Source: an uncultured Nitrososphaeraceae archaeon
Lineage (GTDB): Archaea > Thermoproteota > Nitrososphaeria > Nitrososphaerales > Nitrososphaeraceae
Assembly (NCBI GenBank): GCA_963825865.1
Contig: CAWGVG010000015.1
Location: 96,001-160,000, forward strand
Reading direction: 5' to 3'
Length of the DNA stretch: 64,000 bases
A program made the translations under genes and the position numbers. The notes beneath the pieces are model-generated. The model saw nothing but the letters and a program-made list of their open reading frames with translations. It had not been told where the DNA came from and ran no database searches. Position 1 is the stretch's first letter. Each line of letters starts with the position of its first letter. Below are positions 24,049 to 61,563 of the stretch, piece after piece.

Positions 24049-24120
24049 ACGCTATGATCTCACTTTTTCTATGGCAATCACTGTACATTTAAAAGAGGTT
24101 ATTCCAATTTCACTTTAATT

Positions 24121-24214: not shown

Positions 24215-24273
24215 ATGTGATATTAGTTCTCTAATTGGATTCACTCGAACAGAAAAAAAGTGAAATTAAATAG

Positions 24274-25543: not shown

Positions 25544-25569
25544 TTCAAAATAAAAAGAAAATTCTTCTA

Positions 25570-25929: not shown

Positions 25930-26630
25930 GATATGACCTTCTGATATTAATAAATATAACAGCTAATCCAAGTGCGTAACGGTTATTAGCCGTGCCATAG
26001 ATAAAAATATGTGAGCAGAGGCTACAAGACGGTCAGAGCAGAAAGAAGATAGATTGGAAAAAACAAGTGATGCCTGCAGTAAAAGAAAGGTGCAAGCTTC
26101 AATTCACGTGGAATAATACCTACACTGAGGGCAATGTTTTATGCACTTGTTTCTCGCGGAGTGATACCTAATGATCATCATTGAGGCCAACCAACGAGAT
26201 AAACTGTGCTTCTCTAAGCATTCTACGTCGCTCAAGTTCTATTAGTGCCGATTCTGAAACGAATGCTGCAAAAGATAAGTTTGGATGCTTTGCTTTTTCA
26301 ATGTTATACTTACGTTCTAGTTCTGAGAGCGATTTACCACTTACTGTAATAGTCTTTTGTCCTGGTTTTGGCACTGACATGATATGACCTTCTGATATTA
26401 ATAAATATAACAGCTAATCCAAGTGCGTAACGGTTATTAGCCGTGCCATAGATAAAAATATGTGCAGCAGAGGCTACAAGACGGTCAGAGCAGAAAGAAG
26501 ATAGATTGGAAAAAACAAGTGATGCCTGCAGTAAAAGAAAGGCTGCAAGACTTCAATTCACGTGGAATAATACCTACACTGAGGGCAATGTTTTATGCAC
26601 TTGTTTCTCGCGGAGTGATACCTAATGATC
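25727..26630. repeat. ~450-bp tandem duplication of a divergent promoter and both gene 5' ends
   Basis: 25727-26175 is repeated at 26175-26630; the differences I saw are 1-2 bp deletions in the first copy. Confidence 0.9.
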
Positions 26631-27427: not shown

Positions 27428-27579
27428 CTTGTTTATAATAGACTAGTTACTGCGATCGTTTTAGTAATCCTGACTGACTAGTGCCGTTATTATTTTTCTT
27501 CTCTAGAATATGTATAATTTAGTCGAGTCATAGCTTGCAATAGTTCTCTTAGGCAAACCGTAGTTATTGATTATACTGT

Positions 27580-27753
27580 ATGGAAAATAATACCAACAAT
27601 AAAGAAGTCACCAAAACCTGGGTTAGTGGACAAAATTCTTGCACACTTGTTATCCCTCGATCGGTGGCCAAGGAATACGGCTTAGACTCGCCTTCGCACG
27701 TAGTAGTAGAGAGGATTCCACAAGGGATCCTGATCAGAAAGCTGGAAGTCTAG
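27580..27753 (+). CDS. AbrB/MazE/SpoVT-family DNA-binding protein
   Basis: MENNTNNKEVTKTWVSGQNSCTLVIPRSVAKEYGLDSPSHVVVERIPQGILIRKLEV* (57 aa). Confidence 0.8.
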   Translation: MENNTNNKEVTKTWVSGQNSCTLVIPRSVAKEYGLDSPSHVVVERIPQGILIRKLEV

Positions 27754-27782
27754 AGTAAGGATTAGAGGAGAGAAAAAAAGAG

Positions 27783-28719
27783 ATGATATCTGATAATTTA
27801 CTATCCCACGATGATAATAAAGTTATCCCACATCTAATATTGACCGAGTATCACAGAATGGGTTTTAAGCTAGTACCTCTCGGAGAGGACTCTAAAACCC
27901 CGACCATCAGCTCTACTAATGACATTTACAACGATCCTAATTATTGGACAGAAGAAAAGCTGATCAAAGAGTATTCTAGATTTTCAAATATTGCTACTAC
28001 ATTTGGCATAACTTACACTTCAGAAGGCGAAGCAAACGAGAATAAAAAAGTGTACCTCCACTGCCTGGATATTGATAGTGATAATGTTCTAGCTATTTTA
28101 TTTGACTTCTTAGAGGAGCTGAAATCCAAAACATTTGTAACTAAAACTAAGAAGGATTGCGGTTACCATATTTACTGGTTAAGTCACTCGCAACATACAT
28201 CAATTGGAGCTCGCAGATGCAAACTTGGTTATGAGTTTGAAATCAAGAGTGATAATTCGCTTGGACTTTGTACATTGCCACCCAGCATACACAGGGACGA
28301 TCCTACATTTAGGTATAGAAGTATAGGACTGGATTGTAAAATAACTATTGATGATGGGTTATACCACAAACTGGTAGGTATGCTTTATGATAGGTGTCTC
28401 AAGTCCCAGAACGCCAATGTGATAAAAGATAATCAAAAAGGATTCTAATTTAGCAGGTGTAGATAAAATAACAAAAAGTGAGACTCTTTCTACCGCTACT
28501 TTTAGATCCCTAGATGAACATGCTATAGAACAAGCGGCAGATGCACTTAGGATCAGTTATCAAAGAGGTCATAGAAATTCTATAATTTTTGGTCTTGGTG
28601 GATTATTATTCAAGTCCAGTGTTTCTCTACAAAGTGCACATGATCTGGTTGCCAGGCTATGTGATCATACTAAAGATGAAGAAAAGAGTAGCAGACTGGA
28701 AGTTTTAAACAGCACATAC
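27783..28719 (+). CDS. Bifunctional primase-polymerase plus PriCT-like domain (N-terminal part of probable fusion)
   Basis: GFKLVPL..SKTP, CLDIDS, KTKKDCGYHIYW, LCTLPPSIH; after a slip at an A-run near 28435 the frame reads GHRNSIIFGLGGLLFK and runs in-frame into ORF 28720. Confidence 0.8.
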
Positions 28720-30440
28720 ATGAAGGGTTTAAACGGCGATGACGTTAAAGGCACTGCTCAGCTTCTCGATATATTTACTACATTAAATGGAGGAGATAAA
28801 AATTCTGCAAGACAGTTTTTGAAAGATATCTGTCAGGTTCTAGGTGTGAACGGAAGCATTAGCAATAATGATGAATCTAGTGCACCAACGCCTACTACAA
28901 CTCAAACTCTGATACAACTAGCCAAAGAAAACACCTTATTATTTTTCAAAGATCAATTTGATATCACCTATGCCAAAGTTAAGGTACATCAACATTCTGA
29001 GGTAATAGCACTTGCCAGTTCCAAATTCGAATATCTACTAAGTAAACTCTATTTTGAACATACAAGAGGTGAGGTGGCAGGTCAAGAATCATTAAACAAT
29101 GCTATACGTGTGCTAATTTCACAGACTTTGTTTGACAGTCCAACAGTAACCTTAAACCTAAGGGTTGCATGGGGATGTGAACTGCAAAGTAAAGATTGGG
29201 AAATTTATTACGATCTAGCAGACCCTCTGTGGAGTTGTATTAAGATAACTCAGCAAGATTGGGAAATCATACAAGACCCTCCAGTATTATTTATCCGGTT
29301 TAATCAAAAAGCGCAGATTGAACCTGAGAGAAACTATCCTATTGACATATTTGATAAGTATCTTGATTTAATGCACATAAACAACCCAGACCACAGACTG
29401 TTAATCAAAGTCTGGACTATTGCAGCATTTATTCCAGATATCCCACATCCAATAAGTATTCCATACGGTGAAAAGGGAAGTGTAAAGACCACATACTGCA
29501 AATTCCAAAAAAGGTTAATCGATCCTGACAAAATAGAGCTTCTTACTGTTCCTCAAGAGAAAAGCGAATTTGTGCAACAGCAATATCACAACTACCTTAC
29601 TGTCTACGATAATATCAAAACCGTTCCATATTGGTTTTCTGACGAAGTTTGCAAAGCAATAACGGGAATTGGAAGTAGCAAGAGAAGACTTTACACTGAT
29701 GACGATGATGTGATCTACAGTTACAAACGCCTTCTCATAATAAATGGCATCAATAATAGTCTAACTGAGCCTGATGCCTTAGATCGCAGTATCCTCAAAG
29801 AGTTCGAACGAATAACTGACGATCAGAGAAAGGAAGAGTCCAAGGTAGAGGCTGAATTTGAAGAAATGAAGCCAAAACTTTTAGGATATATATTTGACGT
29901 TTTAGTAAAATCCCTACGAATCAAGCCTAGATAGAATTACGTAACTTGCCCAGGATGGCCGATTTTGCAGTTTGGGGAGAAGCCATTGCAAGGGCCATAG
30001 GCTATAAGCCAATGGAGTTTATTGAGGCATACTATCGAAATATAGGTAGGCAAAATGTAGAAGCAATAGAATCAAATCCGTTAGCTCAGACATTAGATAA
30101 GTTTGTAGATAGCTGGTACAAAGAAGGACAGGAAGCTTGCTGGCAAAGTCCTACTTCTAAGGTTTTAGAAAAGCTAAACAAGACAGCCCAGGCGTATGGT
30201 ATAGACACAAGCAGTAAATTATGGCCTAAAGCCGCCAATTCCTTAACAAAGAGGCTAAGGCCTATACTATCAAACCTAAGGGAGGGTCTAGGAATCCATG
30301 TTGTCATCAGCAGAAACTCTACTGGCAAAAACAAAAACACTTCAACCATAAGAATACTGAAAAAACCTCCACTACCTCCACCATCTCCACCAGACCAAAA
30401 CAAGCACAAAATTATAATGAAAATGGTGGAGGTATATTGA
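28720..30440 (+). CDS. SF3-like helicase/ATPase with C-terminal wHTH-like region (middle of probable fusion)
   Basis: Walker A variant GEKGSVKT, Walker B LTVYDNI, motif C LIINGIN, DALDRS, PRMADF. Confidence 0.75.
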
Positions 30441-30548
30441 GTAGTGGACATACATACCTCCACTCAACAGCATATATCTCCACTAGAAGATATCCAAAAT
30501 CGTGCTCAAAACACAGAAAGTGGAGATAGTGGACATAGTGGAGGTATT
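30363..30548. repeat. Iteron array (putative replication origin) at the helicase/PolB junction
   Basis: Three CTCCAC units at the left end, three GTGGA(G/C) units at the right end, further copies inside. Confidence 0.7.
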
Positions 30549-32609
30549 ATTCCTACCTTAGAGGAGCAGAACCATCTAGACATCGCTGTCAACGATATTC
30601 TGAAAAAGTATGTTGCATTTGACCTCGAATGGACAACATCTTCAGAAGAATCTGCTTCCACAGGATTTGCAACCACATACTCAATAGGAACAAAGATCAC
30701 AGCAGCTGCTTTTGTAGACAATGAAGGGAAAAGCAAAGTCCTACACGTATCAGACTATTCTAATTCCGACAATCCTGAACATGAACTCTTAGTAGATGTT
30801 AATAAAGAGCTGTTAAAGTATGACTATTCACTTGGATGGTATTCTACTGGTGTTGCTATTTATCATGAAGACACTCAAGAGTACCTTGATGGTGTTGACT
30901 CGGATCTTGCTTATTGCATAACAGGTGTTTAGCAAATGGTGTTGATTCTGTAATTGATTTTAATAGCGCAGGTATTCCATACATAAGGGGTCAAAAACAC
31001 ATTGACCTGCATTCTGTATTTGGCAAACCAATGGTACAGACTACAATCTTTAAGAATGCTTACAGAACCCTCAAACTTGAGGAAGTATCCAAAGCTGTAT
31101 TAGGAGACGGTAGTGTTGAAACAGGTGAAGGAAAATACAAAGGGCTAACAGGTAAAGACATTCATACTCTTTCAGTTGAAGAACAAAGGAAGTATGTTCT
31201 AAGAGATGCAGAGCTAGTAATACAACTTTCAAAGCATAACAATGGTGAAGTCCTTGATGCTATGAAATCTATCTCGGAAATAACTGGACTGGATTTTGAA
31301 AGAGTCTGTGGAACTGGCATATCTACATGGTGGGGAGCTATTTTTGATAATATGATGTCTAATGGAGAACACGAATCACCAGCCTTATCATTAACAAAAA
31401 GAAACAAGAACTAACAGATCTAGAGTATAGAGGTGGAATAGTCCTTCAACCAAAGAGGGGACTTTACCATAATCTCATTGTTGTTGATGTTGCGAGTTTG
31501 TACCCTTCAATGGCAATACTTCACAATATATCATTTGACACAATTAACTGTGAATGTTGTAAAGATAGTAATCTTGACTTGAAGACAAACAAAGACATTA
31601 CAAAAGATTGTAGAATAGAAAAAGAATAGAATGGATATGTAAATTAAAAGAAGGTGCGTTTCCAAAGAAATTAAAAGTATTCAAAGAAGAGAGACTACAA
31701 CAAAAGAGACTAGGAAATCAAGTAAAGCAACTAGCTTTAAAAATTCTAATTAATGGCGGGTATGGAGTCTTTGGAAGTCAATATTTCAAGTATTATGATC
31801 CAAGAGTAGCAGAACTAATCACAGCTTATGGTAGACATACACTTTCAAAAATGCAATCAATTGCCAAAGACATAGGCTTTGAAATAGTATATGGAGATAC
31901 TGATTCCCTTATTCCTTCGCTATAACAATAATAATGCAGTATTTATCTCTGAAGGCATGAAAAAATCGTTTCAAGAGTTCAAGAAGAATGTAGCAAACAA
32001 TTGGGAGTTGAAGTAGAACATGCCAAAACATACCAAACTGCAATAATTTCTGATAAAAAAAAGCACTACATTGGTTGGAGTGGCATACAAGGAAAAGAAC
32101 CAGACATAGTAGGAATGGAGGGAGACAAAAATGATAGACCCAGATGGATTAACACTGTATTCAGACAGACAGTATATGATATTATTAGTTCGCAATACTG
32201 ATCCATTGCCAAATCTGAAAAAAGCAATTACTAATTTAGAATCTACATAATGTAAATCCAGAATTACTAAAGAGATCTAATAGACTATCCAAAAATCCAG
32301 AAGAATATGAAAATGAAAATGATCGTAAACGCAAAATAGGGTTAGCGATTGGTGCAAGGAAAGGAGATGTTATAGAGTATTTTGAATCTGACAACAATAA
32401 AGAAGGTTATTCTATAAATCCACAAGACATCAGTATAAAAAAAATACAAAATAATGTTATGGAAAGCAGTTAAGGATATTTTGGAAATTGCAGGTTATGA
32501 CATTGCACAGATAGAACAAGAATTAATTTTTAACAATAGCAAATATGGCCACATAGCAGAGCCTCCCCGTGGCGTGGCCGGGTTACGCCAATTTGCAGCA
32601 AGGAGGTGA
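30444..32609 (+). CDS. polB: Family B DNA polymerase with 3'-5' exonuclease (C-terminal part of probable fusion; several frameshifts)
   Basis: ExoI AFDLEW, ExoIII KYVLRDAE, YRGGIVLQP, region II VDVASLYPSM (~31486), region III KILINGGYG (~31740), region I YGDTDS (~31890), KKHYIG. Confidence 0.92.
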
Positions 32610-32620
32610 ATAGTCTAAAT

Positions 32621-32973
32621 ATGGCATCAGAAAGTCAAGTATTAAGTCCTAAAGCCAAGGAAAATTTGCAGAGAAATGCAGAGCTAAGACAAAAGGACAA
32701 CAAATTTGTAAAATTCAGCCAAGTGAGAAGAAGGTCTATCAATTCAATCCTGAAAAAATAGAGCAAGTAGAAGCAGAATTTAACGGAAAGAAGAGTCAAA
32801 GATACAGATACACAGTAACAGACCCCAACGACAGCAATCAAGAAAAGTACCTAGACGTAGGAAAGAGAACTTCAGAAGACATTGACGCATATTTAAGTGA
32901 AGGAAAAACATTACTCAAAATTCAAAGGTTTGGCTTAGGCAAGGATACACGATATCACGTTACACAAGCCTAA
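32621..32973 (+). CDS. Putative phage-type single-stranded DNA-binding protein (one frameshift)
   Basis: AGGAGGTGA upstream; MASESQVLSPKAKENLQRNAELRQKDNKFVK...RYRYTVTDPN...LLKIQRFGLGKDTRYHVTQA*; the I-x-R-x-G-x-G-x-DT-x-Y ending resembles phage OB-fold SSBs. Confidence 0.55.
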
Positions 32974-33746
32974 AACCAAACCTCCATCCGTATTTTTTTG
33001 GATTAAGATACCTTGTATAGGACGTGATATTAAGTTTAACCAAGGTTTGGACGAGTGTCTGAATATAATATCAAGATTAACAGTGAGAGAAAGCTATAGT
33101 TTATCGATTCGGTCCGTAAACCATTAAAAATGCTGTTAAAACATGATAAGGACTATTGACGGACTAACTTGCTCGGATTACATAAATCACATATAGTAAA
33201 AGATTTATTGCAAGACAATATCGTCCTCCATGAATATAAGTTCCTAACTCCTCCATCGTTCTCTTTAATTCATTTATCCTTTTGTCGTAGTAGCTAAAAA
33301 ACAAGTCAGAGATAGCCGCTGCTGTTCTTGTTCATGTAACTGGTTTTGTTCTCGTTATTGCCTCGTTCTTTTTCTAGTCCTTCTTCAACCGTCTTATCAC
33401 AAACAAAATGGGACCCATATCCCTAAATGATATTCTGGCTTCTTTTGCTAACCACTAACAATAACAAATAAAATTACAGCTGCTGCATTTGTAGATAGTA
33501 TGCTTAGAATGAAAGAACATATGCAAAAAAATCTAAGTTTTTTTATCTTGTCTATCCATAACGCTGATTGTAAATCTTACATTAACTACAGCACATTCTG
33601 GGTTGGTTAACGCACAGGACAGAATAATACATCAATGCAACCTCAAGGAACACGGAGCATGGCAACAACAACAAATGCCAATTTTTTGTATACAGTTATT
33701 ATTAATGGTGGTGATGGTACAGAGTAAACATACACTAGCAAGACTA

Positions 33747-36192
33747 TCACTGTGAAGCAAATACTTGAATACGATAATTATAGAATCAGCTACATACACA
33801 TTACCAGATGAATCAATAGCAATACCACATGGGATCTGAATTGTCCATCGCCTGTACCATAAGATCCCCATTTTGTTATAAAATTGCCATTGCTGTCAAA
33901 CTTTTGTATACGATGATTACCTGAATCAGTTACATACACATTACCTGAAGAATCAACAGCGATACCAGTTGGACGTATCAAATTGTCCATCTCCAGTACC
34001 ATAACATCCCCATTTTGTTATAAAGTTACCATTGCTGTCAAACTTTTGGATACGATCGATTATCAGTATCAGCTACATACACATTACCTGAAGAATCAAC
34101 AGCGATACCATAAGGATTATCAAATTGTCCATCTCCAGTACCTTTAAATCCCCATTTTGTTATAAAGTTACCATTGCTGTCAAACTTTTGTATACGATTA
34201 TTATCATGCATCAGCTACATACACATTACCTGAAGAATCAACAGCAATACCATCTGGATGTATCGAATTGTCCATCTCCTGTACCATTACATCCCCATTT
34301 TGTTATAAATTTACCATTACTGTCAAACTTTTGAAACGATGATTATACTCATCAGCTACATACACATTACCTGAAGAATCTACAGCTATACCCTCTGAAT
34401 ATAAATTGTCCATCTCCAATCGCAGATCCTATAAATTGCCCATACTGTTCTAACTGATAAGTATCCCCATTTTCTAACAAAGGTATACTCATTTGATATA
34501 ACAGGTTTTGTTTGATTGGGCATTGTATGTTGGTATTGATTACTAGCAGCTTTCACAGTAACAGATACAATAGCAGGATTATTACTTGCAGCACCTTTAT
34601 CGTCTTTAACTGTAAGAGAGAATTTCAATGTAGTGTCAGACTGATACAGTTGGAGTGTAAATGTGATGTTGCATGTATTAGCATCATTTAATGTTACAGC
34701 TGGACCTGAAGTCTGCGTCCATGAATAAGATGTTATATTGCCATCTGGATCTCTACTGCCGCTACCATCCAAAGTAACAGTATCACCTGCATTAACTGTC
34801 TGATCTGAGCCAGCATTAGCTGTTGGAGGCTGATTAGGTGGTGGTATATACTTGTCTGTAACTTTAACAGTAGCTGTATTAGTTGCATTTTTGCTATCTG
34901 TAACTGTTAATTCAAATATCATATCTGTGTCTGAAGATATATCTTTGGGAGCTGTAAATGTAGCAATGGATGTATCAGCACCGTTCAATGTAACAGTATG
35001 GTCCACTAGTCTGAATCCATGAATATGTTAATGAATCGCCATATCTGGATCTTTACTTTTACTACCATCCAAAGTAACAACATATCCTGCATTTACTGTC
35101 TGATTGTACCGGCATTAGCTACTGGAGGATGGTTGACAGGATTTACTGTGATTTTGACAGTTGAAATACCTGTTGCATTTTTGTCATCTTTAACTGTTAA
35201 TTCAAATACTAATACTGTATCAGTTGAAACATTGATGGAGCTGTAAATGATGGTGTAGCGGTATTAGCACCATTTAATGTAACAGCTGGTCCTCCTATCT
35301 GTTTCCATGAATATGATGTTATAGTTACCATCTGGGTCTTTACTTTTAGTACCATCCAAAGTAACACTATCACCAGCATTAACTGTTTGATCTAAGCCAG
35401 CATTAGCTACCGGTGGTTGGTTAGGAGGTGGAACATACTTGTCTGTAACTTTAACATCATCTACACCAGTTGCATTTTTATTGTCAGTAACTGTTAATTT
35501 AAACGTCAGAGTTGTGTCAGCAGATATGTTGTTAGAAGGAGCTGTAAAGGTAGCTATTGGATCTATTAGCACCATTTAATATAACAGTAGGACCAGCAGT
35601 CTGCACCCATGAATATGTTAATGTATCGCCACTATCAGGGTCTTTGCTTTTACTTCCATCTAGAGTAACAACATAACCTGGATTTACTGTCTGATCTTCA
35701 CCAGCATTAGCTACTGGAGGGTGGTTGATATGCTTGACTGTAATAGTAACAATGGCATGGATTGTTACTTTCAGCACCCTTGTCATCTTTAGCTGTTAGC
35801 GCAAACTTCAATTGGGTATCAGATGGTACATTGGAAGGAGCTGTAAATGTAGGTGAAGATGTATTAGATCGTTTAATATTACAGCTGGTCCTGCAATCTG
35901 TCATCCATGAATAGCTCAATTTATCATTTGGATCTGGATCAATGGCAACACCAACAAGTGTAACCTTTGAGCTCTCATTTACTGTTTGGTCTGGACCAAC
36001 ATTGGCTATAGGAGGATGATTGACTATAGGTGGTTGCTTTGGATTGGTTGGTTTGAACGCTAATGCTGTATGATAAGTATAAGGAGCATTTGGTAAAGTA
36101 TTATTAAATGATGATAAGGGAAGAAAAACATTACAAATTGCGCTGAGTGTTAAAATTAAAGTTATTAAAGTTGTTTTTGTCTTTACCATCAT
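33747..36192 (-). CDS. Secreted protein A: signal peptide, 5 PKD/Ig-like domains, NHL beta-propeller (many frameshifts)
   Basis: TALAFKPTN; repeated NxPPxANAGxDQTV...SYSW...FxLTVxD; repeated [14 protein letters not shown]...[16 protein letters not shown]. Confidence 0.85.
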
Positions 36193-38755: not shown

Positions 38756-41090
38756 TTATTTGTAAGCAGCAAACACTTGGATACGGTTATTCTCAAATTC
38801 AGTTACATACACTGTTTTGTAATCTACAGCAATATCTGCTGGACGATCCAATTGTCCATCTCCAGTACCTTGAGATCCCCATTTTGTAATTAAATTACCA
38901 TTGCTGTCGAATTTCTGAATAATAAAGCTATTGCCAGTTACATACACATTGCCTGTTTTGTAATCAACAGCTATACCATAATCCAAAGTACTAATAAACT
39001 CTCCAGCACCAGAAGAGTCTAATGCAATATTAGTTGGTCCTTGAAACTGATGCTGACCGCCAAACTGTCCGTCATCGTTTCCATGAGATCCCCATTTTGT
39101 AATAAAATTACCATTGCTGTCAAACTTTTGAATACGATAATTATAACTGTCGGCAACGTACACATTACCGGATGAAGGTTCAATAGCAACACCCTCTGGA
39201 AAATTGAATTGGCCATCATCTGAACCCAACGATCCCCATTTTGTAATAAAATTGCCATTGCTGTCAAACTTTTGAATACGATGATTAAAAGCCTCTGTTA
39301 CATACACATTGCCTGAAGAATCTACAGCAACGTCTGTGGGCGAATTGAGTTGTCCATTTCCAGTACCTTGAGATCCCCATTTTCTGACAAATTGATAATT
39401 ATTTGCTGTACCACTGCTTGCTTTGGTTAGACTTCCTGTAGTTGTTGGTGCTGTCGCTGCTGGTGTAGCAGTTGCTTTCACAGTAACGGATACGGTAGCA
39501 GGACTATTACTTGTAGCACCTTTATCGTCTTTAACTGTAAGATTGAATTTCAATATAGTGTCGGATGATACGCTTGGTGCTGTAAACGTTGGTGAAGCTA
39601 CATTAGCATCACTCAATGTTATAGTTGGACCTGCAGTCTGTGTCCATGAGTATGATGTTATATTGCCATCAGGATCTCTGCTACCGCTACCATCCAAAGT
39701 AACAGTACCCACTAGCATTAACTGTCTGATCTTGGCTAGCATTCACTGTTGGTGGTTGATTTGGTGGAGGGACATACTTGGCTGTAACTTTGACATTAGA
39801 AGTATTTGTTGCATTTTTGCTATCGGTAACTCTTAATTCAAATGTCATATCTGTGTCTGAAGATATATCCTTGGGAGCTGTAAAAGTAGCAATAGATCTA
39901 TCAACACCATTTAATACCACTGATGGTCCTCCTATCTGTTTCCATGAATAATTCAATGGGTCATTGTCCGGATCTCTACTTTTGCTTCCATCCAAACTAA
40001 CAGCATATCCTGCATTGACTGTTTGATCTAAGCCAGCATTAGCTCAGGTGGATGATTGACAGGATTTACTGTGACTCTAACAGTGGAAATACCAGTTGCA
40101 TTTTTATCATCTGTGACTGTCAATTCAAATACCAATACAGTATTGGTTGAAATATCTGAAGGGGCTGTGAATATAGGTGTAGCAGTAGTAGCGTCGTTTA
40201 TTATAACAATGGGTCCTCCTATCTGTTTCCATGAATAAGACTTTATAGCACCATCCGGGTCTTTGCTTTTACTTCCATCCAAAGTTACAGTATCTCCAGC
40301 GTTTACAATCCGGTCTGAGCCAGCATTGACTACCGGTAGTTTATTAGGTGGTGGGATATACTTGTCTATAACTTTAACATCGGCTGATCCAGTACATTTT
40401 TGCTATCTCTAACTGTTAATTTAAAAATGAGGGGTGTATCAGCAGATATATTGGAAGGAGCTGTAAAGGTGGCTATTGGAGAACTAGCACCATCCAACTT
40501 AACTGTAGGGCCAGCTATTTGTGTCCATAAATAAGATAATGAATCGCCACTATCAGGATCTTTGCTTTTACTACCATCCAAGGTAACAATATCTCCCGGA
40601 TTCACGACTACTTGATTTTCTTGACCAGCATCAGCTACTGGAGGCTGGTTAACATGTTTGACTGTAACGGTTACAATAGCATCATTACTACTTTTAGCAC
40701 CCTTATCATCTTCACTGTCAATAAAAATTTCAAGTCTCTATCTGATGATACAGTTGGAGCTGTAAATGATGGATTAGTGGTATTACTATTGTTTAGTTTA
40801 ACACCAGGTCCAGATATTTGTTTCCATGAATAACTTAATTTGTTGTCACCAGAGTCTGGATCACTTGCTATTCCATTTAACACAACAGTTGCATTTTCAT
40901 TTACTGTTTGGTTTACACCAGCATTAGCTACTGGAGGATTATTAATAATTGGTTTTAGATTAGTTGGTTTGAATGCTAGTGCTGTATAAGTATGAGTAAT
41001 AGCTGGTAAAGTAGTAACAAGAATAAGACTACAAACTAAACTGACAATTAAAATTAAAGTTGTTATTGTAGCTGTTGTCTTTACCATCAT
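38756..41090 (-). CDS. Secreted protein B: signal peptide, 5 PKD/Ig-like domains, NHL beta-propeller (frameshifts)
   Basis: [13 protein letters not shown] repeats, NHL repeats ending NNRIQVFAAYK*. Confidence 0.85.
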
Positions 41091-41342
41091 CGACGAGATA
41101 TATTTTGGTTACTTCTAGTATGATATAAAAGCATCAGTACCAGTTCATGTCAAGCAAATAAGAAACATATACATCGACGATCAGCAATGATAGATTTGGC
41201 AAAAATGTCACCTAGTAGTAATTAGCCCAATGTGTAACACAAAATACCTTGTAAATTGACAAAGGTATCTTTAGATCTTACTATATACAAGATTTTTTAC
41301 TACTACCTACTTAACAGCTACTACTACTTTTAAGTCTCAACA

Positions 41343-43344
41343 TTATTTCTGAGGGGCAAATACTTGGATACGACTATTTCCATTATCAGATACATACACA
41401 TTACCTGTTTTAGAATCTATAGCAACATAATTTCGACTCTTAAATTGTCCATCTTCGGTACCATAAGAACCCCATTTTGTTATAAAATTACCATTGCTGT
41501 CAAATTTTTGTATACGGTGATTACTACTATCAGCTACATACACATTACCTGAAGAATCAATAGCAATACCTAATGGACTATCGAATTGTCCGTCTTCAGT
41601 ACCATAAGAACCCCATTTTGTTATAAAGTTACCATTGCTGTCAAATTTTTGTATACGGTTATTGCCGTAATCAGCTACATACACATTACCTGAAGAATCA
41701 ACAGCGACACCTTCTAGGATTGAATTGAATTGTCCGTCTTCGGTACCATAAGAACCCCACTTTGTTATAAAATTACCATTGCTGTCAAATTTTTGTATAC
41801 GGTTATTGCCGTAATCAGCTACATACACATTACCTGAAGAGTCAACAGCGACATCATTTGGAAAATGAGAATTGTCCATCTCCAGAACCATGAGATCCCC
41901 ACTTTGTTATAAAATTACCATTGCTGTCAAATTTTTGTATACGGTTATTGCCGTAATCAGCTACATACACATTACCTGAAGAGTCAACAGCGACATCATT
42001 TAGTTGAATGAATTGTCCATCTCCAGAACCTTGAGATCCCCACTTTGTTATAAAATTACCATTGCTGTCAAATTTTTGTATACGGTTATTGCCGTAATCA
42101 GCTACATACACATTACCTGAAGAGTCAACAGTCAACTCCAGTTATAAGATTGAATTGTCCGTCTTCGGTACCATTAGAATCCCCATTTCCTTACAAATGA
42201 ATACTCATTTGAGACATTAACTTTTGTCTGATTACTTGATGCTGTTACTATTGATGGCTTCTGTACAGCGGCTTTCACCGTGACACTCACAATAGATGGA
42301 TTATTACTTGCAGTACCTTTATCATCCTTAACTGTAAGAGAGAATTTCAATATAGTATCAGATGATACACTTGGAGCTGTAAATGATGTTATTGCAGTGT
42401 CTGCACCGCTTAGTGTAACAGATGGACCGGAAGTCTGCATCCATGAGTATGATGTTATATTGCCATCTGGATCTCTACTGCCACTCCCATCTAAAGTAAC
42501 ATTATCACCAGAATTAACTGTCTGATCTAGACCAGGCGTTAGCTGTTGAAGGCTGATGGGGTGGTGGTATATACTTGTCTGTAACTTTAACGTCATCTAC
42601 ACCAGTAGCATTTTTACTATCTCTAACTGTCAGTCTAAATATCAAATCAGTGTCAGCAGATATGTTGTTTGAAGGAGCTGTAAAGGTAGCTATAGTTCTA
42701 TCAGCACCATTTAATGCAACGTTTGGGCCTGCAGTTTGTATCCAGGAATAGATTAATGGATCGTTATCAGGGTCTTTGCTTTTACTTCCATCTAGAGTAA
42801 CAATATATCCTGCATTAACTGTCTGGTCAATACCTGCATCAGCTATTGGAGGGCGGTTGATATGCGTGACAGTAATAGTAACAATGGCTAAATTGTTACT
42901 TTCAGCACCTTTATCATCTTTAGCCGTCAAGGCAAACTTCAATTGGGTATCTGACGGCACATTGGAAGGAGCTGTAAACGTAGGTGAAGCAGTATCATGA
43001 CCGTTCAATGTTACTGCAGGTCCTGCAGTTTGCAACCAAGAATAACTTAATTTATCGTTCGGATCCGGATCAATGGCAACACCAACAAGTGTAACCTTTG
43101 AGCTCTCATTTACTGTCTGGTCTGGACCAACATTGGCTATAGGAGGATGATTAATAGTAACAGGTTTCGAAACAGTAGTATTATTAGTTGGTTTGAATGC
43201 TAATGCTGTATATTTCTTATCTGTAATATTGAGGATAGCAGTAGATAAAAAAACAATATTACTATAAACTAAAATGACCAAGGCCAAAGTTAATACAACC
43301 AAGAGTTTTCGATCCTTATCCATAAGAAAAGTCTTGATTGCCAT
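41343..43344 (-). CDS. Secreted protein C: signal peptide, 3 PKD/Ig-like domains, 6-blade NHL propeller (frameshifts)
   Basis: [13 protein letters not shown] repeats, ~141-bp NHL repeats ending SRIQVFAPQK*. Confidence 0.88.
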
Positions 43345-43771
43345 TTTTTTATCTTATTATTTCCTTGCACGTTTGTTTAGATTTTAATGTTTCAGTATAT
43401 TGTCATCATGACTCGAAACAATATGCAGACTGGCTGAATCAGCTGTTACACTAAATGATTCTGATATTATTTTTAACAAATGATTATTACTTTTGATAAG
43501 ATTTGATTACTATTTGCCCAAAATAGGAGAAAATATTATAACCTCATCTCATTTACAATAGCATATAATGGCAGTCATTAGGAGCAGTCTCTGTTCTGAG
43601 CCATGTTGCCGGAGACTAGCTGATGTAATATACTCCAACAACTGGAACAGTAAAAAATACACTAGCAGCTGCCATTCTAGTTATTATTATCATCGTCATT
43701 ATTGCTTCTATTCTGGTTACACCACAAATGTTTACGGTAAAGATATTCTTAGGAGATGCTGTTGTAGGCTT

Positions 43772-44242
43772 ATGACAATAACAGACAAAAAAGAAAACAT
43801 AATATTAATCAATATTGAATCTACCTCTAAAGAAGAAGAGGATCATGACGAAGACCCAGAAGAGCTAGAACGAATTACCCATAACCTACGAGACGAACTA
43901 ACTGAAATAGATGCAATAGAAAAGGTAGATTTAGTTATCAAAAGAAGGAGAAAAAGCTCCAAAAGGCTCCAAAGCTGGTGCCGAAGTAGTTGCATTGGGT
44001 TCTTTGCTTGTAACTTTAGGGACATCAGCAGTAAGCACTGCTATACCGAATCTTTCTAATGCTCTTCAATCATGGCTTACTCGTCATGAAAGACGTAAAA
44101 TCAGTTTAGAGATTGGAGGAGATAAGATAGAAGTAACAGGCATATCCGATGAACAGCAGGCAGCGGTTGATCGAGTCTTGGATAAGCCGCATAGCATCAG
44201 CAAAGAGAAAAAAAAGGAGAAGTACAGACGGATGGCGCCTGA
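43772..44242 (+). CDS. Effector-associated constant component EACC1-like membrane protein (frameshifts)
   Basis: DPEELERITHNLRDEL...APKGSKAG-like segment, LGSLLVTL, ALQSWLTRH, KISLEIGGDKIEVTGISDEQQ-RLIESW; directly upstream of and overlapping a caspase gene. Confidence 0.8.
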
Positions 44243-46590
44243 AAGACGTTTTGCATTAATCGTAGCCAGCTCGCAATATGTAGATCCAGATCTGCAGAAA
44301 TTGATTGCACCAGCTCAAGACGCTGAAGCATTGGCAAATGTACTACAAGATCCTAACATCGGTGGCTTTGAGGTCAAAACACTGTTAGATGAACCTTCTT
44401 ACAAGGTAAATGAAGAAATCCAGGCATTCTTTAGTGACCGTGGACGAGAGGATCTATTGCTTCTTTATTTTTCGTGTCATGGAATAAAGGATGAAGAGGG
44501 GCAGCTTTACTTTGCTACTTCAAACACTAGCCGTAAGCTGCTAGATGCAACTGCAATTTCGGCTAATTTTGTAAATAGGATGATGTTTCGTAGTCGTTCA
44601 CGCGGCAGCTGTTATTGTTGGACTGCTGCTATAGTGGTGCTTTTGCAAAAGGACTTGTAAGCAGAGCTGATAAAAAAATACATACTGGAGATTACTTTGA
44701 CGAAGGTCGTGGAAGAATAGTATTAACTGCATCAGACTCTATGCAGTATTCTTTTGAAGCAGATACATTGAATGTTGAGGTAAAAGACCCAGGTTCAATC
44801 TTTACTCGTGCCATAATAGATGGATTGAATACAGGAAAGGCTGATCTGGACAAAGATGGCCGAATTTCGTACGATGAACTATATGACTATACATATGATC
44901 GAGTAATAGATGAGACTCCTCTTCAAAGACCAGGTAAGTGGGTGTTTGGTGTAGAAGGAGATGTGATTGTTGCCCGCAATCCCAACTGGAAAGAAGTCAA
45001 CAATAAAGGACCTGTAAAAACAGCCGGGGAGGAAATTGTAACAACAACCACAAAGCCCAAAGAGGTAACAAGCCCTAAAACACCACCATCAGCAGCAGAT
45101 CAACATCACATATCACACCACCACAATCAGATATAGCAAACAAACCTATTCATCAGAAGAAAAATCAACTCCGTCAGCATTAACACCAATAAAAGACATT
45201 ACTCCAACAACAAGGCCATCCAACAATAATAAAAAAAGAGTCATCTCTTCTTACACCACCTTCTGATTTAACCACTACCATTTATAGAAGAAAAAACAGC
45301 CAAGACTGAAAAAAACATAGAGTCAGATATAGAAGAAACAAATAATAAATTCCAAGCAGGCGGTCCGATCATTTACAAAGGATAATACTTTTGTCACTGA
45401 AAGAAGTAGTGGAAATGCTTCTTCTTCTTCGTCATCACAGCCTGTACATGAAAGAAATCTGGCTTAAGCAATCCAACTATATTGTTACCAATTTTAGGAG
45501 GAGGTATCATAGGAGGCATCGTAATTGCTCTTGTTGCAGGTGGAATAATACATTTACCTGGTGGAGGAAATGTACCACCATCAACACCAGCGACTCCGGC
45601 ACAACCACCACCACCACCTACTTCTCTTCTTGCTCCTAACCGTCTACCAGTAGCTAATGCTGGTACAGACCATACAGTCAACGCAGGTGATACTGTTACG
45701 TTAGATGGTACTAAAAGTGCTGATCTTGATGGTAATATAAGGTCATATTCATGGCTACAAACTGCTGGACTACCTGTTACATTAAATGGTGCTAACACAG
45801 CCACACCATCGTTTGTTGCTCCTTCAGATATATCATCTGATCTCTTATTAACCTTCAAGTTGACAGTTAAAGACAACGCAAGTGCTACGAATACAGCCAC
45901 TGTAAATATCACAGTCAAACATGTTACACCAATAATACCACCAGCGTTACCAACACCTGTGGATCATCCTCCTACAGCTACTAACCAATCTGTTACAACT
46001 AACCAGAATACTCCAGTAGATATTACATTAGCAGGAAGTGATCAAGATCAGAATGACACATTGACTGCACATATAGTTACACCACCATTGCATGGAACCT
46101 TAGGTACAATTAACCAGACTACAGGTGTCGTAACCTATACACCAAACCAAGGATTTACCGGAGATGACAGCTTTACCTTCAAGATAAATGATGGTAAAGC
46201 AGATAGCAGCAACACAGCTAAGGTGTCAATAACAGTAAATAACTCTCCAGCAAATAATGGTAATAGTGCTCCTTCTAACCAGACTCAGCAGATATCATCT
46301 TCTAACACTGCTCCCACTGCTACTGACCAATCTATTACAACTAACCTGAATACGCCTGTTGATATTACATTGGCAGGTAGTGATCCAGATCAGAATGATA
46401 CATTAACAGCACTGTAGTGACGAATCCATCTCATGGAACTTTGAGTAATGTCAACCAAGATACTGGTGTTGTAACCTATACACCAAACCAAGATTTCACA
46501 GGAGATGATAGCTTTACATTTAAAGTAAATGATGGTAAAACTGATAGCAGCAATACAGCTACTGTGAATATAAAAGTAGGTGGGGGCTAA
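44232..46590 (+). CDS. Caspase-like (C14) protease, Pro/Thr linker, TM helix, PKD and two Ig-like (Big_9-type) domains; probably one frameshifted gene
   Basis: RRFALIVASSQY-DPDL..L.AP..DA, LYFSCHG (His), LDCCYSGAF (Cys), SIFTRAIIDGL.TG.AD.DKDG.IS; TM LPILGGGIIGGIVIALVAGGII; YTPNQGFTGDDSFTFK-type repeats. Confidence 0.8.
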
Positions 46591-46683
46591 ACAATATAAA
46601 GAGTGGTAATAATACTCCATTAGCTTTACCCAAAATTAGTTAGCGAGCAAATGATAATAACAAAAATATTCAGAAATAAGCAA

Positions 46684-48517
46684 ATGAGAGAGAGATCCCG
46701 CAATTTTCTATTATACTCTTCACTTATTGTTATTTTGTCAGAGCTATTGATATTGTTGCCATCATTTACTACTACTAATACTACTTTACCAAGTATTTCT
46801 AATGTCTATTATAATACAGCATTAGCATTTAAACCAACCAATAAAAATCCATCTATTTTAAGACCACCCATTTCTGTTAATCATTCTCCTGTCAGCTAAT
46901 GTTGGTCCAGACCAAACAATCAATGAAAATGCAACTGTTACACTTGTTGGTGTGGCCATTGATCCAGATCCAAATGATAAATTAACCTATTCATGGATGC
47001 AAACTGCAGGACCTACCGTAACACTGAACCGCCCTAATACATCTTCACCTACATTTACAGCTCCTTCCAATATACCATCCGATACCCAATTGAAGTTTGC
47101 ACTAACAGCTAAGGATGATAAGGGTGCTGCAAGTAACAATTTAGCCATTGTTACTATTACAGTCAAGCATATCAATCGTCCTCCAACAGCTGACGCTGGT
47201 CACTGATCAGACAGTCAATGCAGGTTATGTTGTTACTCTGGATGGCAGTAAGAGCAAAGACCCTGATAGTGGTGATACATTAACCTATTCCTGGGTTCAG
47301 ACTGCTGGTCCTACTGTTACATTAAATGGTGCTGATACATCCATAGCTACTTTTACCGCTCCTAAAGACATATCATCTGACACAGACATGAGATTTCAAT
47401 TAACAGTTACCGATAGCAAAAATGCAACTAATTCTGCTACTGTCAAAATTACAGACAAGTATGTCCCTCCACCCAATCAGCCTCCAACAGCTAACGCTAG
47501 CTCAGATCAGACAGTTAATGCAGGCGATACTGTGACTTTAGATGGTAGCGGAAGTAGAGATCCAGACGGTACCATAACATCATACTCATGGATGCAGACT
47601 TCAGGTCCAGCTGTAACATTGAGCAGTCCATATGTAGCTTCACCAACGTTTACAGCCCCAGGTGTTTCATCTGATACTGAGCTGAAATTCTCACTTACAG
47701 TTACAGATGATAAAGGTGCTGCAAGTAATAATGCTGCCTACTGTGACGGTTACTGTGAAAGCTCCTCCTGCACCGTCGGGTAATATGACATCAGCCGAAG
47801 GTGGTGGTGGTACTAATATGACATCAGCTGCCGCACCATTACCATCGTCTGATGCTACTGCATTATATAATAAAGCTCGGTGATCTTGATAGCCAAGGTA
47901 ACTACACAGGAGCTATAACCTATTTAGACAAGGCTTTAGCTATAGATCCAAATTATAAAGAAGCATTAACTGAGAAAGGTTTAGATCTTAATAACCAGGG
48001 TAACTATGCAGAAGCTATAACCTATTTAGACAAGGCTTTATCTATAGATCCAAATTTCAAAGAAGCATTAAATAATAAAGCTAATGCTCTTGGTAGCCAA
48101 GGTAACTACACAGGAGCTATAACCTATTTAGACAAGGCTTTATCTATAGATCCAAATTTCAAAGAAGCATTATATAATAAAGGTTTTGCTCTTTATAGCC
48201 AGGGTAACTATACTGGAGCTATAAGCTATTTAGACAAGGCTTTATCTATAAATCCAAATTTCAAAGAAGCATTAACTGGTAAGGGAGAAGCTCTTAATAG
48301 CCAGGGTAACTATGCAGAAGCTATAACCTATTTAGACAAGGCTTTAGCTATAGATCCAAATTATAAAGTTGCATTAAACGATAAAGGTTTTGCTCTTTAT
48401 AGCCAGGGTAACTATACTGGAGCTATAAGCTATTATGACAAGGCTTTATCTATAGATCCAAATTTCAAAGAAGCATTAGATAACAAACAAAATGCTCTTT
48501 CTAAGATGGGCCGCTAG
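46684..48517 (+). CDS. Secreted protein D: signal peptide, 3 PKD/Ig-like domains, TPR head (frameshifts)
   Basis: [13 protein letters not shown] repeats very similar to proteins A and C, six 102-bp TPR repeats. Confidence 0.85.
47880..48490 (+). repeat. Six 102-bp tandem TPR-coding repeats
   Basis: tatagatccaaat-like unit recurs at 47941, 48043, 48145, 48247 (variant), 48349, 48451. Confidence 0.95.
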
Positions 48518-49619: not shown

Positions 49620-49853
49620 TCAGTAATACCGCCCTTTCATTGATATCTTTTTTTAGATCTTTAGAAAATCAATAAAAACCTTCGTAAAAAGTGAATAATT
49701 ATTAAAACGCCCGATGGTATGAAAATATATTTCCAGTACTCTTGAAATGCATAAAGAAGTTTCATAAATGAAATATCGACTATCTTGAAAATGAAGAATG
49801 AGCCGAACTGTTAGAGATAACCTCATTACTATATATGACAATAATAACAATGT

Positions 49854-50327
49854 TTGACCAATACAAAACGCTTAGGTAGGTATAATCGTTATCTCTCCAC
49901 TACTAGCAATAATAATGATAACTCTAGTTCTCAGTCATATTTCAACGAGCTAGCATCATTCTATAAAGATAACAGCAGGAAACCATCGATTGATTTGGAT
50001 AGAACTCTTTTTGGACACAAGCGCACTTCATTACAAAAAGTACTTGCAAATGCTAACAAGGCAATTGAGAAATCAACAAAGTTCATAAATAAAATAAAAT
50101 CAAGACAGCTTGCTTGTGCTAATAGAACAAAATCGATACCTAAAAATGCAACAATAAGAAAAGAATACATCAAATGCGGAAAAGATATGTGTGTGCAAAA
50201 GCATGGGCCTTACTACTACGCTTACTGGAAAGACCCTGAATGCAAGAAACTAAAGAAAAAATACATCGGCGACCATATGCCAAAAAATAAAGAACAAGAA
50301 TCAAAAAATGATAACACTGCTCAGTAA
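49854..50327 (+). CDS. DUF6788-like Zn-ribbon protein of mobile elements
   Basis: EYIKCGKDMCVQKHGPYYYAYWK...LKKKYIG. Confidence 0.75.
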   Translation: MTNTKRLGRYNRYLSTTSNNNDNSSSQSYFNELASFYKDNSRKPSIDLDRTLFGHKRTSLQKVLANANKAIEKSTKFINKIKSRQLACANRTKSIPKNATIRKEYIKCGKDMCVQKHGPYYYAYWKDPECKKLKKKYIGDHMPKNKEQESKNDNTAQ

Positions 50328-50421
50328 CTGGATATCTAAGAATAGCGACTAGATGACATGATGAATAATACAGGCTTGGTTACATAAGATGTGGCGTCAT
50401 TTTTTACAAAATCTTATGTAA

Positions 50422-50790
50422 CTATGATACCTGAGTCTGCAACTTCTTAAGCAAATCTAGATCACTCTTCATCGGGTCAGGAGCAAGAGAAGCAGGAGAA
50501 GAATTATCTTTTTTACTGTCCTCGCCACCTATCTTCTCTAGTAGAGTATCACAAAAGTTGCCTTCTTCTATATCAAATTTCATTGCTTCAATTAATGCTT
50601 CCTGCATGTACTCTGAAAGAGAAGTCTGATATGTATCACAGATAATTTTTAAAACTTGGTGTTGATGTTTTGTCAAGTTTACTTTTTCATTAATCGTAAT
50701 AATATCATCAACAGTGTCTTTATTTTTATTGTTGGTATGAGTCAACTTTGATGATGACAGTGATTTAGTTGAAGATGAAGAATTATCCAT
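50422..50790 (-). CDS. Putative ribbon-helix-helix protein
   Basis: KVNLTKHQHQVLKIICDTYQTSLSEYMQEAL pattern. Confidence 0.55.
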   Translation of the reverse strand: MDNSSSSTKSLSSSKLTHTNNKNKDTVDDIITINEKVNLTKHQHQVLKIICDTYQTSLSEYMQEALIEAMKFDIEEGNFCDTLLEKIGGEDSKKDNSSPASLAPDPMKSDLDLLKKLQTQVS

Positions 50791-60454: not shown

Positions 60455-60793
60455 TCAGACGGTAACATTAAAGTTTGTCCAAGCCTGAACGTATGCATTA
60501 GAGATCCTATCGAGCTCATATATGGCATAGTGTCTAGCTGAAACTGATTTTGCGCGGCCTGCCAAAATGTCAGCCTCATTCATATCCATTATCCTGGTCA
60601 TTACATTATAATGGATTCTTCTCAATCCTACAAACATAATGCCTGCAATTTTTTTGGTTATTTGGTGAGCTACATCAATATCGATATCATTGAAGTTTGC
60701 AACTTTGCGAAACTTCTCCCAAATATCGGTTGGTAAAATCGTAAAATAACACTTTTTATGAGCTCTAAACCAATTTATAACAATTATAGTCAC
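60455..60793 (-). pseudogene. C-terminal fragment of an SSV-type tyrosine integrase
   Basis: GLRRIHYNVM...EADILAGRAKSVSARHY; 5' part lost next to the adjacent IS remnant. Confidence 0.6.
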
Positions 60794-60865
60794 ACCATTG
60801 GATTTATCAATAACATGTAATTTATTACAATTACATCCTCCTAGGTTGTTACATATCTCAGTATT

Positions 60866-61537
60866 ATGAATATAGATGATTTCACAACATTACAGAAATT
60901 TACAGATAGGATCGCAGGTACTATATTAGAAAGAATGATCTCTTCTTTCATTGCCATTCCTCTTATCAATGTCAAGCAGATATTCTTTGGAATAGATTCG
61001 TCTGGATTCAAGTCACCCCGTTTATCACAGGTACTACACAGAAGAGCTAAACTAAGAAGAAGGAAATGGATAAAGTTGTCTATTGGAGCTAAAACAGATA
61101 ATATGCACCATTAAGAAAAGGAGAGCTCCTACAAAACATGACAATATAGATTTTAAATCGATTATAATAACAAAATCACCAGACATTAAGCAACTATCCA
61201 TAGTAGTAGCGGACAAGGGATATGACAGCGAAGCGAACCATGTACTTGTGAGAGAAGACCTCAAAGCATACTGCATCATTCCTCCTAGATACACACATGT
61301 TCCGATATGGAGGACGCATGGCAGGTATTGAAAGCAGATGAAGCGTGGATACTCCAAACTATTGTACAATCAACGTAACAAGGACGAAACCATAATGTCT
61401 GTCATAAAGAGGCTGTTTGGAGAACATGTTTCTTCAAGGCTAAAAACACAGAACAGGGAATTATCATTCAGATGTATAGCCTATAACATGCATAGACTAA
61501 CGAATCTTGTCATTATTGTGATGATTTCTACATAGCC
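60866..61537 (+). mobile_element. IS5-family (ISH1-like) transposase remnant
   Basis: DFTTLQKF, GIDSSGF, ADKGYDSEANH, YNQRNKDETIMSVIKRLFGE; internal stop; candidate end TTTCTACATAGCC at 61525-61537. Confidence 0.8.
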
Positions 61538-61563
61538 GATGCTGAAAAAAGTTTTAATATTAG

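Follow-up and report, generated by a model that had tools for sequence, protein, structure and literature searches.

A probable EACC1–caspase cell-suicide module with a predicted extracellular PKD/Ig-like region in a Nitrososphaeraceae ammonia oxidiser

The EACC1–caspase gene pair

The window analysed here is a 64,000-nucleotide (nt.) stretch of an uncultured Nitrososphaeraceae archaeon (assembly GCA_963825865.1, here genome G000; contig CAWGVG010000015.1, positions 96,001–160,000), and its forward strand carries two overlapping genes that together resemble the EACC1–caspase systems of bacteria (coordinates below are window positions). The upstream, EACC1-like gene (nt. 43772–44242, ~155 codons) runs from an ATG at nt. 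43772 to a TGA stop at nt. 44240–44242 and is read across three frameshifts. The downstream gene (nt. 44232–46590, ~785 codons; ATG at nt. 44232, TAA at nt. 46588–46590) is read across eight frameshifts as a single gene encoding a caspase domain, a linker, a transmembrane (TM) helix, a PKD domain, and two Big_9 immunoglobulin (Ig)-like domains. The end of the first gene overlaps the start of the second by 11 nt.

This organization was established by comparison with intact orthologues. Using the first 123 residues of the caspase as the query against longer proteins only, 324 of 1495 candidates matched at E ≤ 0.001, and the four best matches (94–98% identical) were P0001 (488 a.a), P0002 (676 a.a), P0003 (622 a.a), and P0004 (787 a.a). 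Each is an intact single protein joining the caspase to Big_9, in some cases with PKD as well, and P0004, from soil metagenomes, has exactly the domain architecture of the window gene (Pfam: Peptidase_C14, E = 3.5e-16; K319L-like PKD, E = 1.2e-20; Big_9 in three stretches, E = 9.6e-36). A frameshift-aware alignment of nt. 44232–46587 to P0004 gave 675 identical columns of 794, with eight frameshifts (near nt. 44603, 45100, 45150, 45214, 45278, 45366, 45452, and 46411) and no stop codon. Likewise, nt. 43772–44239 aligned to the intact EACC1 orthologue P0130 (156 a.a, also from soil metagenomes) with 136 of 157 columns identical, three frameshifts (near nt. 43938, 44161, and 44219), and no stop codon. 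Because intact orthologues exist, nt. 44232–46590 is a single open reading frame (ORF), and an EACC1 gene overlapping a one-ORF caspase gene is the correct reading once indels are allowed for. An earlier reading, made without database searches (the sequence-only reading), had already proposed both the overlap and the single ORF, each of which the alignments bear out; it made no mention of the three breaks in the EACC1 gene itself.

As assembled, the EACC1 N-terminal frame opening at nt. 43772 is acidic, and after a run of four A near nt. 43938 the reading switches to a frame carrying the typical EACC1 core. The predicted cytoplasmic caspase (Peptidase_C14) domain covers nt. 44232–45000, interrupted by the frameshift near nt. 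44603, and both sets of catalytic residues are present, namely the His of SCHG (codon at nt. 44478–44480) and the Cys-Cys of DCCYSG (codons at nt. 44624–44629). The third frame, entered after nt. 44603, carries the Cys motif and an EF-hand-like loop before passing into low-complexity sequence, a Pro/Thr/Ser/Lys linker (nt. 45001–45478) that contains six of the eight caspase-gene frameshifts and is collinear, piece by piece, with the linker of P0004. At nt. 45452 recognizable sequence reappears, with a single TM helix (ILLPILGGGIIGGIVIALVAGGII, nt. 45479–45550; Lys/Arg confined to its N-side), the K319L-like PKD domain (PF22352, nt. 45659–45916), a first Big_9 domain (PF17963, nt. 45965–46234, residues 162–251 of the ORF at nt. 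45482), and a second (nt. 46308–46587) that is split by the frameshift near nt. 46411. Pfam recognized these domains even on the pieces as assembled, with Peptidase_C14 on nt. 44232–44600 (E = 1.4e-10), K319L-like PKD (E = 8.1e-19) and Big_9 (E = 3.6e-24) on nt. 45482–46414, and the second Big_9 on nt. 46417–46587 (E = 3.5e-11). The order of linker, TM helix, one PKD, and two Ig-like domains given by the sequence-only reading thus agrees with Pfam, which specifies the families.

The C-terminal piece of the EACC1-like gene (nt. 43935–44231) matched the Pfam profile PF19953 with E = 0.001. The corresponding match in P0130 spans positions 12–99 of the 107 in the profile, 16 of 24 aligned family members matched PF19953 at E ≤ 0.01 (best 2e-8), and P0130 shares 46% identity with P0179 and 44% with P0180, both of which are annotated with PF19953. 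With the EACC1 piece as the query, 60 of 66 candidates, proteins of 78–171 a.a, matched at E ≤ 0.01. Three results weigh against the assignment. Both the EACC1 of the window (19.5 bits) and its closest intact orthologue P0130 (20.2 bits) fall under the Pfam gathering cut-off of 23.6, a PF19953 search of the six genome frames returned nothing at E ≤ 0.01, and the PADLOC models gave no match to P0004 or P0130. EACC1 membership is a matter of transitive homology and synteny rather than of a curated threshold. The locus was recovered with a profile of archaeal relatives (alignment A1) after PF19953 had missed it, and the practical lesson for annotation is that this archaeal clade escapes both the Pfam threshold and PADLOC.

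For synteny, we collected 51 EACC1 loci (46 from metagenomes, five from bacterial genomes) and dropped four in which the contig ended too early. In 39 of the remaining 47, the next ORF after EACC1 is a caspase at E ≤ 1e-5. A search of genome contigs for further loci with A1 used narrow patterns and gave six only. The PF19953-positive relatives, the Peptidase_C14 match, and this synteny agree in supporting the EACC1–caspase pairing, and with it the EACC1 similarity of the upstream gene, that had been recognized from the sequence.

Two features of the EACC1 protein are relevant to its likely function. A conserved hydrophobic segment rich in small residues (ALGSLLVTLGTSAVSTAIPNL, nt. 43989–44051), whose first part (nt. 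43989–44033) reads ALGSLLVTLGTSAVS, corresponds to the Gly/small-residue TM-like segment described for the family (Kaur 2020, eLife, PMC7159879); within it, G77 and L83 are invariant in A1 and L76, S78, L79, L80, and V81 are at least 90% conserved. Upstream lies a V-D-L motif whose Asp is also at least 90% conserved in A1. The codons of Asp53-Leu54 (nt. 43928–43933) mark a candidate caspase cleavage site, as judged from conservation and from a position comparable with that of the Asp49 site in Ktedonobacter EACC1 (Evans 2025, bioRxiv, 10.1101/2025.11.14.688446). Structure prediction added little, in that the EACC1 monomer model was of low confidence (mean predicted local distance difference test, pLDDT, of 61.4) and a complex prediction of two caspase domains (residues 1–262) with EACC1 scored 0.00, which gives no answer and is uninformative either way.

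The caspase domain itself is well conserved, with H83, C132, and C133 invariant in all 40 aligned homologues, so the His/Cys dyad noted from the sequence is indeed intact. In the AlphaFold model of P0001, pLDDT exceeds 90 for most of residues 1–260 and falls below 50 in the linker (residues 266–380). By Foldseek, its nearest folds in the PDB are MALT1 paracaspase (E 5e-11) and caspase-6/-7, the matches ranging from E 5e-11 to 6e-8 with TM-scores by target of 0.45–0.76; a search of solved structures by sequence gave no match for the protease part at E ≤ 0.01. Unlike these animal proteins, to which it is only 11–19% identical, the protease here shares one chain with a TM helix and a predicted ectodomain and contains a loop of EF-hand type. 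In the textbook view, MALT1 and the initiator caspases are activated by induced proximity.

The loop in question is a canonical 12-residue EF-hand-type loop (DLDKDGRISYDE, nt. 44843–44878) inside the caspase domain. Its pattern (D-x-D/N-x-D/N-G-x-I/V-x-x-x-E) is found in 39 of the 40 aligned homologues, bacterial ones included, with D205 invariant, G210 in 39, and E216 in 36, while the Pfam EF-hand_5 match (E = 5.8e-4) stays under the cut-off. This conservation suggests Ca2+ control of this caspase family, and the loop offers a cheap, testable handle on regulation. Neither Kaur 2020 nor Evans 2025 uses the terms “EF-hand”, “calcium”, or “Ca2+” in its main text.

Several properties of P0001–P0004 support a single-pass type-II protein with a cytoplasmic protease and an extracellular PKD/Big_9 region, the topology that had been read from the sequence. 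Each protein has one strong hydrophobic 19-mer (Kyte-Doolittle 2.6–3.1), flanked by two to four Lys/Arg on the N-side and none on the C-side. N-glycosylation sequons are 3–8 fold denser past the helix (1.6–4.2 per 100 a.a, compared with 0.3–0.5 before it), and all Cys residues lie on the N-side, none on the C-side. No N-terminal signal peptide was seen by eye in the caspase protein. Of the downstream caspase ORFs, 22 were complete, and 14 of these have a hydrophobic 19-mer past the protease (no more than 10 of 18 once near-duplicate contigs are merged). It is followed by TonB_C, FGE-sulfatase, PsbP-like, or unassigned domains, suggesting that an extracytoplasmic C-terminus is common in the family.

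The predicted ectodomain is the variable part of these proteins. While the caspase domains of P0001–P0004 are 91–97% identical, past residue 262 the proteins align only partially, at 58–82% identity, and differ in domain content, carrying one Big_9, PKD plus Big_9, or a long Ser/Thr-rich linker with one Big_9. One metagenome contig goes from the caspase C-terminus to the TM helix and directly on to Big_9, lacking a 322-nt part of the linker as well as the PKD domain (416 nt), as in P0001. As a side observation, the solved sequences nearest to the PKD domain (residues 473–564 of P0004) are the PKD domains of KIAA0319L (E 1.2e-8). Human KIAA0319L is the adeno-associated virus receptor, and its PKD domains bind capsids, a likeness that we take as an analogy only.

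Origin of the frameshifts

As assembled, the two genes contain 11 frameshifts (three and eight) and no in-frame stop over ~950 codons. The breaks are most likely assembly errors because essential genes of the same assembly, aEF-2, rpoA1, and rpoB, are frameshifted as well. The aEF-2 gene is split in this genome by one frameshift in 2.2 kb and whole in five of five relatives, and rpoA1 and rpoB each match in four pieces, the latter with three frameshifts in about 1.8 kb. Across the 4.98-Mb genome (assembly completeness 81.8%), stop-free segments of at least 100 a.a cover ~62% of the sequence, with a median near 150 a.a. Indels throughout the assembly are the only reason why the locus has the look of six to twelve gene fragments, and gene calls from this genome require frameshift-aware reading.

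To examine the breaks individually, public soil metagenome contigs of related strains, about 90–93% identical, were aligned to the locus, and 40 of the 220 differences were listed. Among these, indels cover four of the 11 break sites (nt. 43937, 44159, 44602, and 45151), and all four are healed. The X3 contig (record 12) has one base fewer at nt. 43937 and at nt. 44159, while X3 and X4 contigs have one extra base behind nt. 44602, restoring the caspase frame, and a 2-base difference at nt. 45151, consistent with a base missing near nt. 45150. Within the same listed differences, 18 of the 20 substitutions between nt. 44381 and 44928 fall at third codon positions, as computed from their coordinates. 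We regard the 11 frameshifts as very probably indel errors of a long-read-type assembly rather than gene decay.

A number of observations pull the other way. With 11 in 2.8 kb, frameshifts are several times denser here than in aEF-2 and rpoB, so that some breaks could be real. The healing contigs come from other strains, the only near-identical run (X2) covers no break, and one X4 contig spans nt. 43937 without the deletion. The alternative is a genuine pseudogene pair, its frameshifts real mutations in a decaying accessory island whose neighbouring PKD genes decayed too. Besides the density, this would fit the fragmentation of all four PKD neighbours (see below) and the degenerate copies in other Nitrososphaeraceae, where genome G269 has a frameshifted EACC1 and no caspase within the 10 kb fetched, and genome G397 has only an N-terminal EACC1 remnant. 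However, decay should be set against the lack of any nonsense codon over the whole length, the concentration of listed substitutions at third positions, and the equally broken essential genes, and G269 is judged, from the frameshift in its EACC1, to be a similarly error-prone assembly. On balance, we consider true decay improbable.

Relation to the published system and proposed mechanism

The EACC1–caspase pair was described as “System 4”, a two-gene conflict system with EACC1 encoded at the 5′ end and a 3′ gene combining a constant N-terminal caspase with ~50 alternative C-terminal domains (Kaur 2020). TM helices occur in at least 33% of its caspases, one form having a TM helix with an extracellular PBP domain, and the system is statistically associated with prokaryotes that aggregate or are multicellular (650 of 671 organisms; Kaur 2020). 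EACC1-KrAvs12 of Ktedonobacter racemifer, the one member that has been tested, reacts to a phage protein. Its caspase cuts EACC1 at Asp49, toxicity resides in the C-terminal fragment of EACC1 alone, liposomes are permeabilised by cleaved EACC1, and the fused domains act as sensors (Evans 2025). The same work notes DnaK-like and EccC-like domain fusions and suggests roles beyond phage defence.

The window locus shares with System 4 the upstream overlapping EACC1 gene with its small-residue hydrophobic segment, and the N-terminal caspase with His and Cys followed by a variable C-terminus. It differs in its host, a Nitrososphaeraceae archaeon as opposed to the actinobacteria, proteobacteria, and other bacteria of the main texts, in its variable part (TM, PKD, and two Big_9), and in an EACC1 clade lying under the Pfam cut-off. 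Whereas the sensor of EACC1-KrAvs12 is a cytoplasmic STAND/Avs module, the window protein has a TM helix and a predicted ectodomain. The EACC2–caspase proteins (Kaur 2021, eLife, PMC8195603) are similar in joining a constant module and a caspase to a variable C-terminus that can be extracellular behind TM helices, as in the form with an extracellular CHASE2 domain; unlike here, EACC2 is a different domain, fused N-terminal to the caspase in one protein and coupled to TRADD-N or ECF sigma factors. What is new at this locus is the host family and the PKD/Ig ectodomain, the mechanism and the TM/extracellular caspase forms having already been published. The words “PKD” and “NHL” are absent from the main text of Kaur 2020, although the supplementary phyletic tables of Kaur 2020 and Evans 2025 may list archaeal or PKD-bearing members, and a literature search linking caspases with Nitrososphaera found nothing relevant by title or abstract.

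In logic, the pair also resembles the bacterial gasdermin systems, although EACC1 is unrelated to gasdermin in sequence and the protease sensors of those systems are cytoplasmic. In bacterial gasdermin–protease defence, a neighbouring protease removes the inhibitory part of a latent pore-former, and the resulting pores kill the cell.

We interpret the locus as probably a two-gene EACC1–caspase cell-suicide module of the abortive-infection type in a Nitrososphaeraceae ammonia oxidiser. EACC1, the product of the first gene, would be a small latent pore-forming protein, and that of the second gene a type-II receptor. In the latter, a disordered linker of ~170 residues and the TM helix would connect the cytoplasmic caspase to an ectodomain of one PKD and two Big_9 domains, the presumed sensor. 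Clustering of the receptor by a multivalent ligand outside the cell, with an adsorbing virus or damage to the envelope as the most plausible candidates, would bring the cytoplasmic protease domains together, mirroring proximity-activated caspases and paracaspases. Activation by extracellular binding or clustering, also put forward in the sequence-only reading, is a hypothesis. The protease would then cleave EACC1, probably between D and L of the near-invariant V-D-L site, and the freed C-terminal fragment would oligomerise into membrane pores that kill or arrest the cell. For the archaeal pair, cleavage and pore formation are predicted from the bacterial homologue (Evans 2025). The cell-death outcome that the sequence-only reading had suggested therefore now has experimental backing for the family, through the Ktedonobacter member. 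Weighing against this interpretation, the experiments we know of concern neither this protein nor a homologue from any archaeon, and virus binding by the ectodomain is hypothetical.

The nature of the trigger is where other explanations have most room. The ectodomain could instead sense damage to the envelope or S-layer, encounters with kin or competitors, or a cue for development or aggregation, making the module one of stress-induced or social death or dormancy rather than an antiviral one. The statistical link to multicellular and aggregating prokaryotes and the roles beyond phage defence suggested from DnaK-like and EccC-like fusions (both cited above) would suit such a function, as would the common use that this genome makes of PKD, Big_9, NHL, and TPR as modules for surface display and adhesion. 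On the other hand, the only tested member responds to a phage protein, and a change of ectodomain content among nearly identical caspases is the pattern expected under an arms race; we find a purely non-viral sensor rather unlikely. Even less plausible is the arrangement first proposed for the family (Kaur 2020, section 33), in which EACC1 is the membrane sensor that switches on the caspase, and the caspase, by processing itself, would here shed the PKD/Ig ectodomain as a decoy or adhesin effector. The long disordered linker between protease and TM helix could hold autocleavage sites; however, the helix lies between linker and ectodomain, so a cut in the cytoplasmic linker would release no ectodomain but leave it membrane-bound. 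With EACC1 shown to be the cleaved substrate and toxic part and the fused domains to be sensors (Evans 2025), we judge this model very improbable.

A more specific version of the suicide module would be an “outside-in” archaeal immune receptor, whose ectodomain, being of the same PKD/Ig module types as surface proteins of the cell itself, among them the four PKD-stalk paralogues on either side of the pair, would act as a decoy or guard for virus attachment sites. Virion clustering would lead to caspase dimerisation, EACC1 cleavage, and permeabilisation before or during genome entry, with Ca2+ influx through the first pores binding the EF-hand loop and amplifying the response. This is speculative and, in our view, unlikely in its full form, but if true, it would constitute a one-chain prokaryotic analogue of death-receptor-to-caspase-to-pore signalling at the adsorption stage. 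More generally, the locus appears to extend a recently solved bacterial protease-gated pore system to Nitrososphaeraceae, and little is known about either the defence systems or the viruses of ammonia-oxidising archaea. Most of the “how” is given by the published mechanism, leaving the putative extracellular trigger as the interesting part, since an outward-facing sensor form allows one to ask whether cell-surface triggers fire prokaryotic suicide modules.

Genomic neighbourhood and distribution

The contig is archaeal, with an aEF-2 gene 6 kb upstream of the window that is 87% identical to that of a family relative, and the genome contains an intact amoA. A search of sequencing runs gave small word shares, at most 0.09, from which we deduce neither habitat nor strain. 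Four genes with PKD stalks surround the pair, all with a signal-anchor and all frameshifted. Three lie on the reverse strand upstream, namely neighbour a (nt. 33600–36192; PKD repeats and NHL repeats, heavily frameshifted), neighbour b (nt. 38759–41108; PKD repeats and an NHL propeller), and neighbour c (nt. 41346–43353; three PKD and NHL repeats), which is divergent from the EACC1 gene. Neighbour d (nt. 46651–48517, forward strand; three PKD and TPR repeats) begins 60 nt past the caspase stop codon. The leader motif TALAFKPTN is common to all four, just after the N-terminal hydrophobic segment (nt. 36066, 40982, and 43206 on the reverse strand and nt. 46819 on the forward strand). A loose form of the pattern has only these four true sites in the 4.98-Mb genome, a fifth match on contig C21 not being alike, and the motif may be a cluster-specific processing or sorting signal.

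As the sequence-only reading had stated, the PKD family of the caspase ectodomain (PF22352) is found in all four neighbours, whose PKD domains share 69–77% DNA identity with that of the caspase. Its further suggestion of sensor/adaptor coupling fared less well, as only shared domain families and the shared leader motif were found, and from sequence comparison we regard the four neighbours and the caspase PKD as a local paralogous family, which is not evidence of functional coupling. A special kinship between the ectodomains of caspase homologues and the window neighbours was also considered and was not borne out by identity comparison. The NHL ectodomains of P0007, P0009, and P0030 are 54–62% identical to neighbour c, but they also match NHL genes elsewhere in the assembly at 45–51% identity across longer alignments on other contigs, and the TPR part of P0019 shows only 32–38% identity to neighbour d.

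The surrounding region appears rich in mobile elements. We noted an integrated element (nt. 24120–32700) next to a tRNA-Ile gene (nt. 24120–24215, 96 nt), the right border of which was not found. Its genes follow the tRNA and include an integrase (nt. 24456–25460; phrog_1, 8.3e-10), a topoisomerase-like gene (within 24.4–28.4 kb; phrog_6247, 3.6e-47), a Prim-Pol gene (nt. 27759–28445), and fragments that by eye resemble a family B DNA polymerase (nt. 30441–32200). In the search for its attachment (att) repeat, the tRNA 3′ end was not repeated within three mismatches, and no exact repeat of at least 14 nt was found. On the other side of the gene pair lie a second, archaeal-phage-type integrase fragment (nt. 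60458–60889; PF16795, E = 1.9e-4) and two segments (nt. 49842–50706 and nt. 60880–61540, the latter adjoining the fragment) that are found repeatedly elsewhere in the genome at 78–87% identity (contigs C7, C13, C18, C41, C3, C29, C22, C14, and others) and also in a relative, genome G002, and that look like multi-copy mobile-element genes. The sequence-only reading had placed the pair on an archaeal mobile element; its position between mobile-element genes stands, but with no att sites or borders found, carriage on a discrete element is only putative. Separately, two adjacent open segments at nt. 2947–3775 on the reverse strand resemble, by eye, a frameshifted insertion sequence (IS)-type transposase.

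The module is rare in this archaeal group. The archaeal EACC1 profile matched one of 251 genomes drawn from across the order, the window's own, and four of 238 Nitrososphaeraceae genomes; caspases at E ≤ 1e-10 were likewise found in four of the 238, and only G000 and G361 have both genes. This scattered occurrence indicates a rare, patchy accessory system in the family. A DNA search of the whole locus against 40 relatives returned only PKD and Big_9 repeat matches and no orthologue. The caspase that accompanies EACC1 in G361 lacks a TM helix; it carries pentapeptide repeats, confirmed by Pfam on the related locus L028, and has at its C-terminus a stretch that by eye is TPR-like. Two AT-rich metagenome contigs pair EACC1 with a caspase-pentapeptide protein and with a caspase-TM-PsbP-like protein, respectively, so that the C-termini at AT-rich loci comprise pentapeptide repeats, a TM helix with a PsbP-like domain, and pentapeptide repeats followed by the TPR-like stretch. 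Two EACC1 relatives are labelled by NCBI as belonging to Candidatus Nitrosopolaris metagenome-assembled genomes. Finally, in another genus, the EACC1 remnant of G397 (profile positions 1–39; locus L026, which covers positions 918–3720 of contig C278) lies just downstream of a gene with three PKD domains and NHL repeats and runs into a PKD fragment. EACC1 and genes for PKD/NHL surface proteins thus occur together a second time, in degenerate form.

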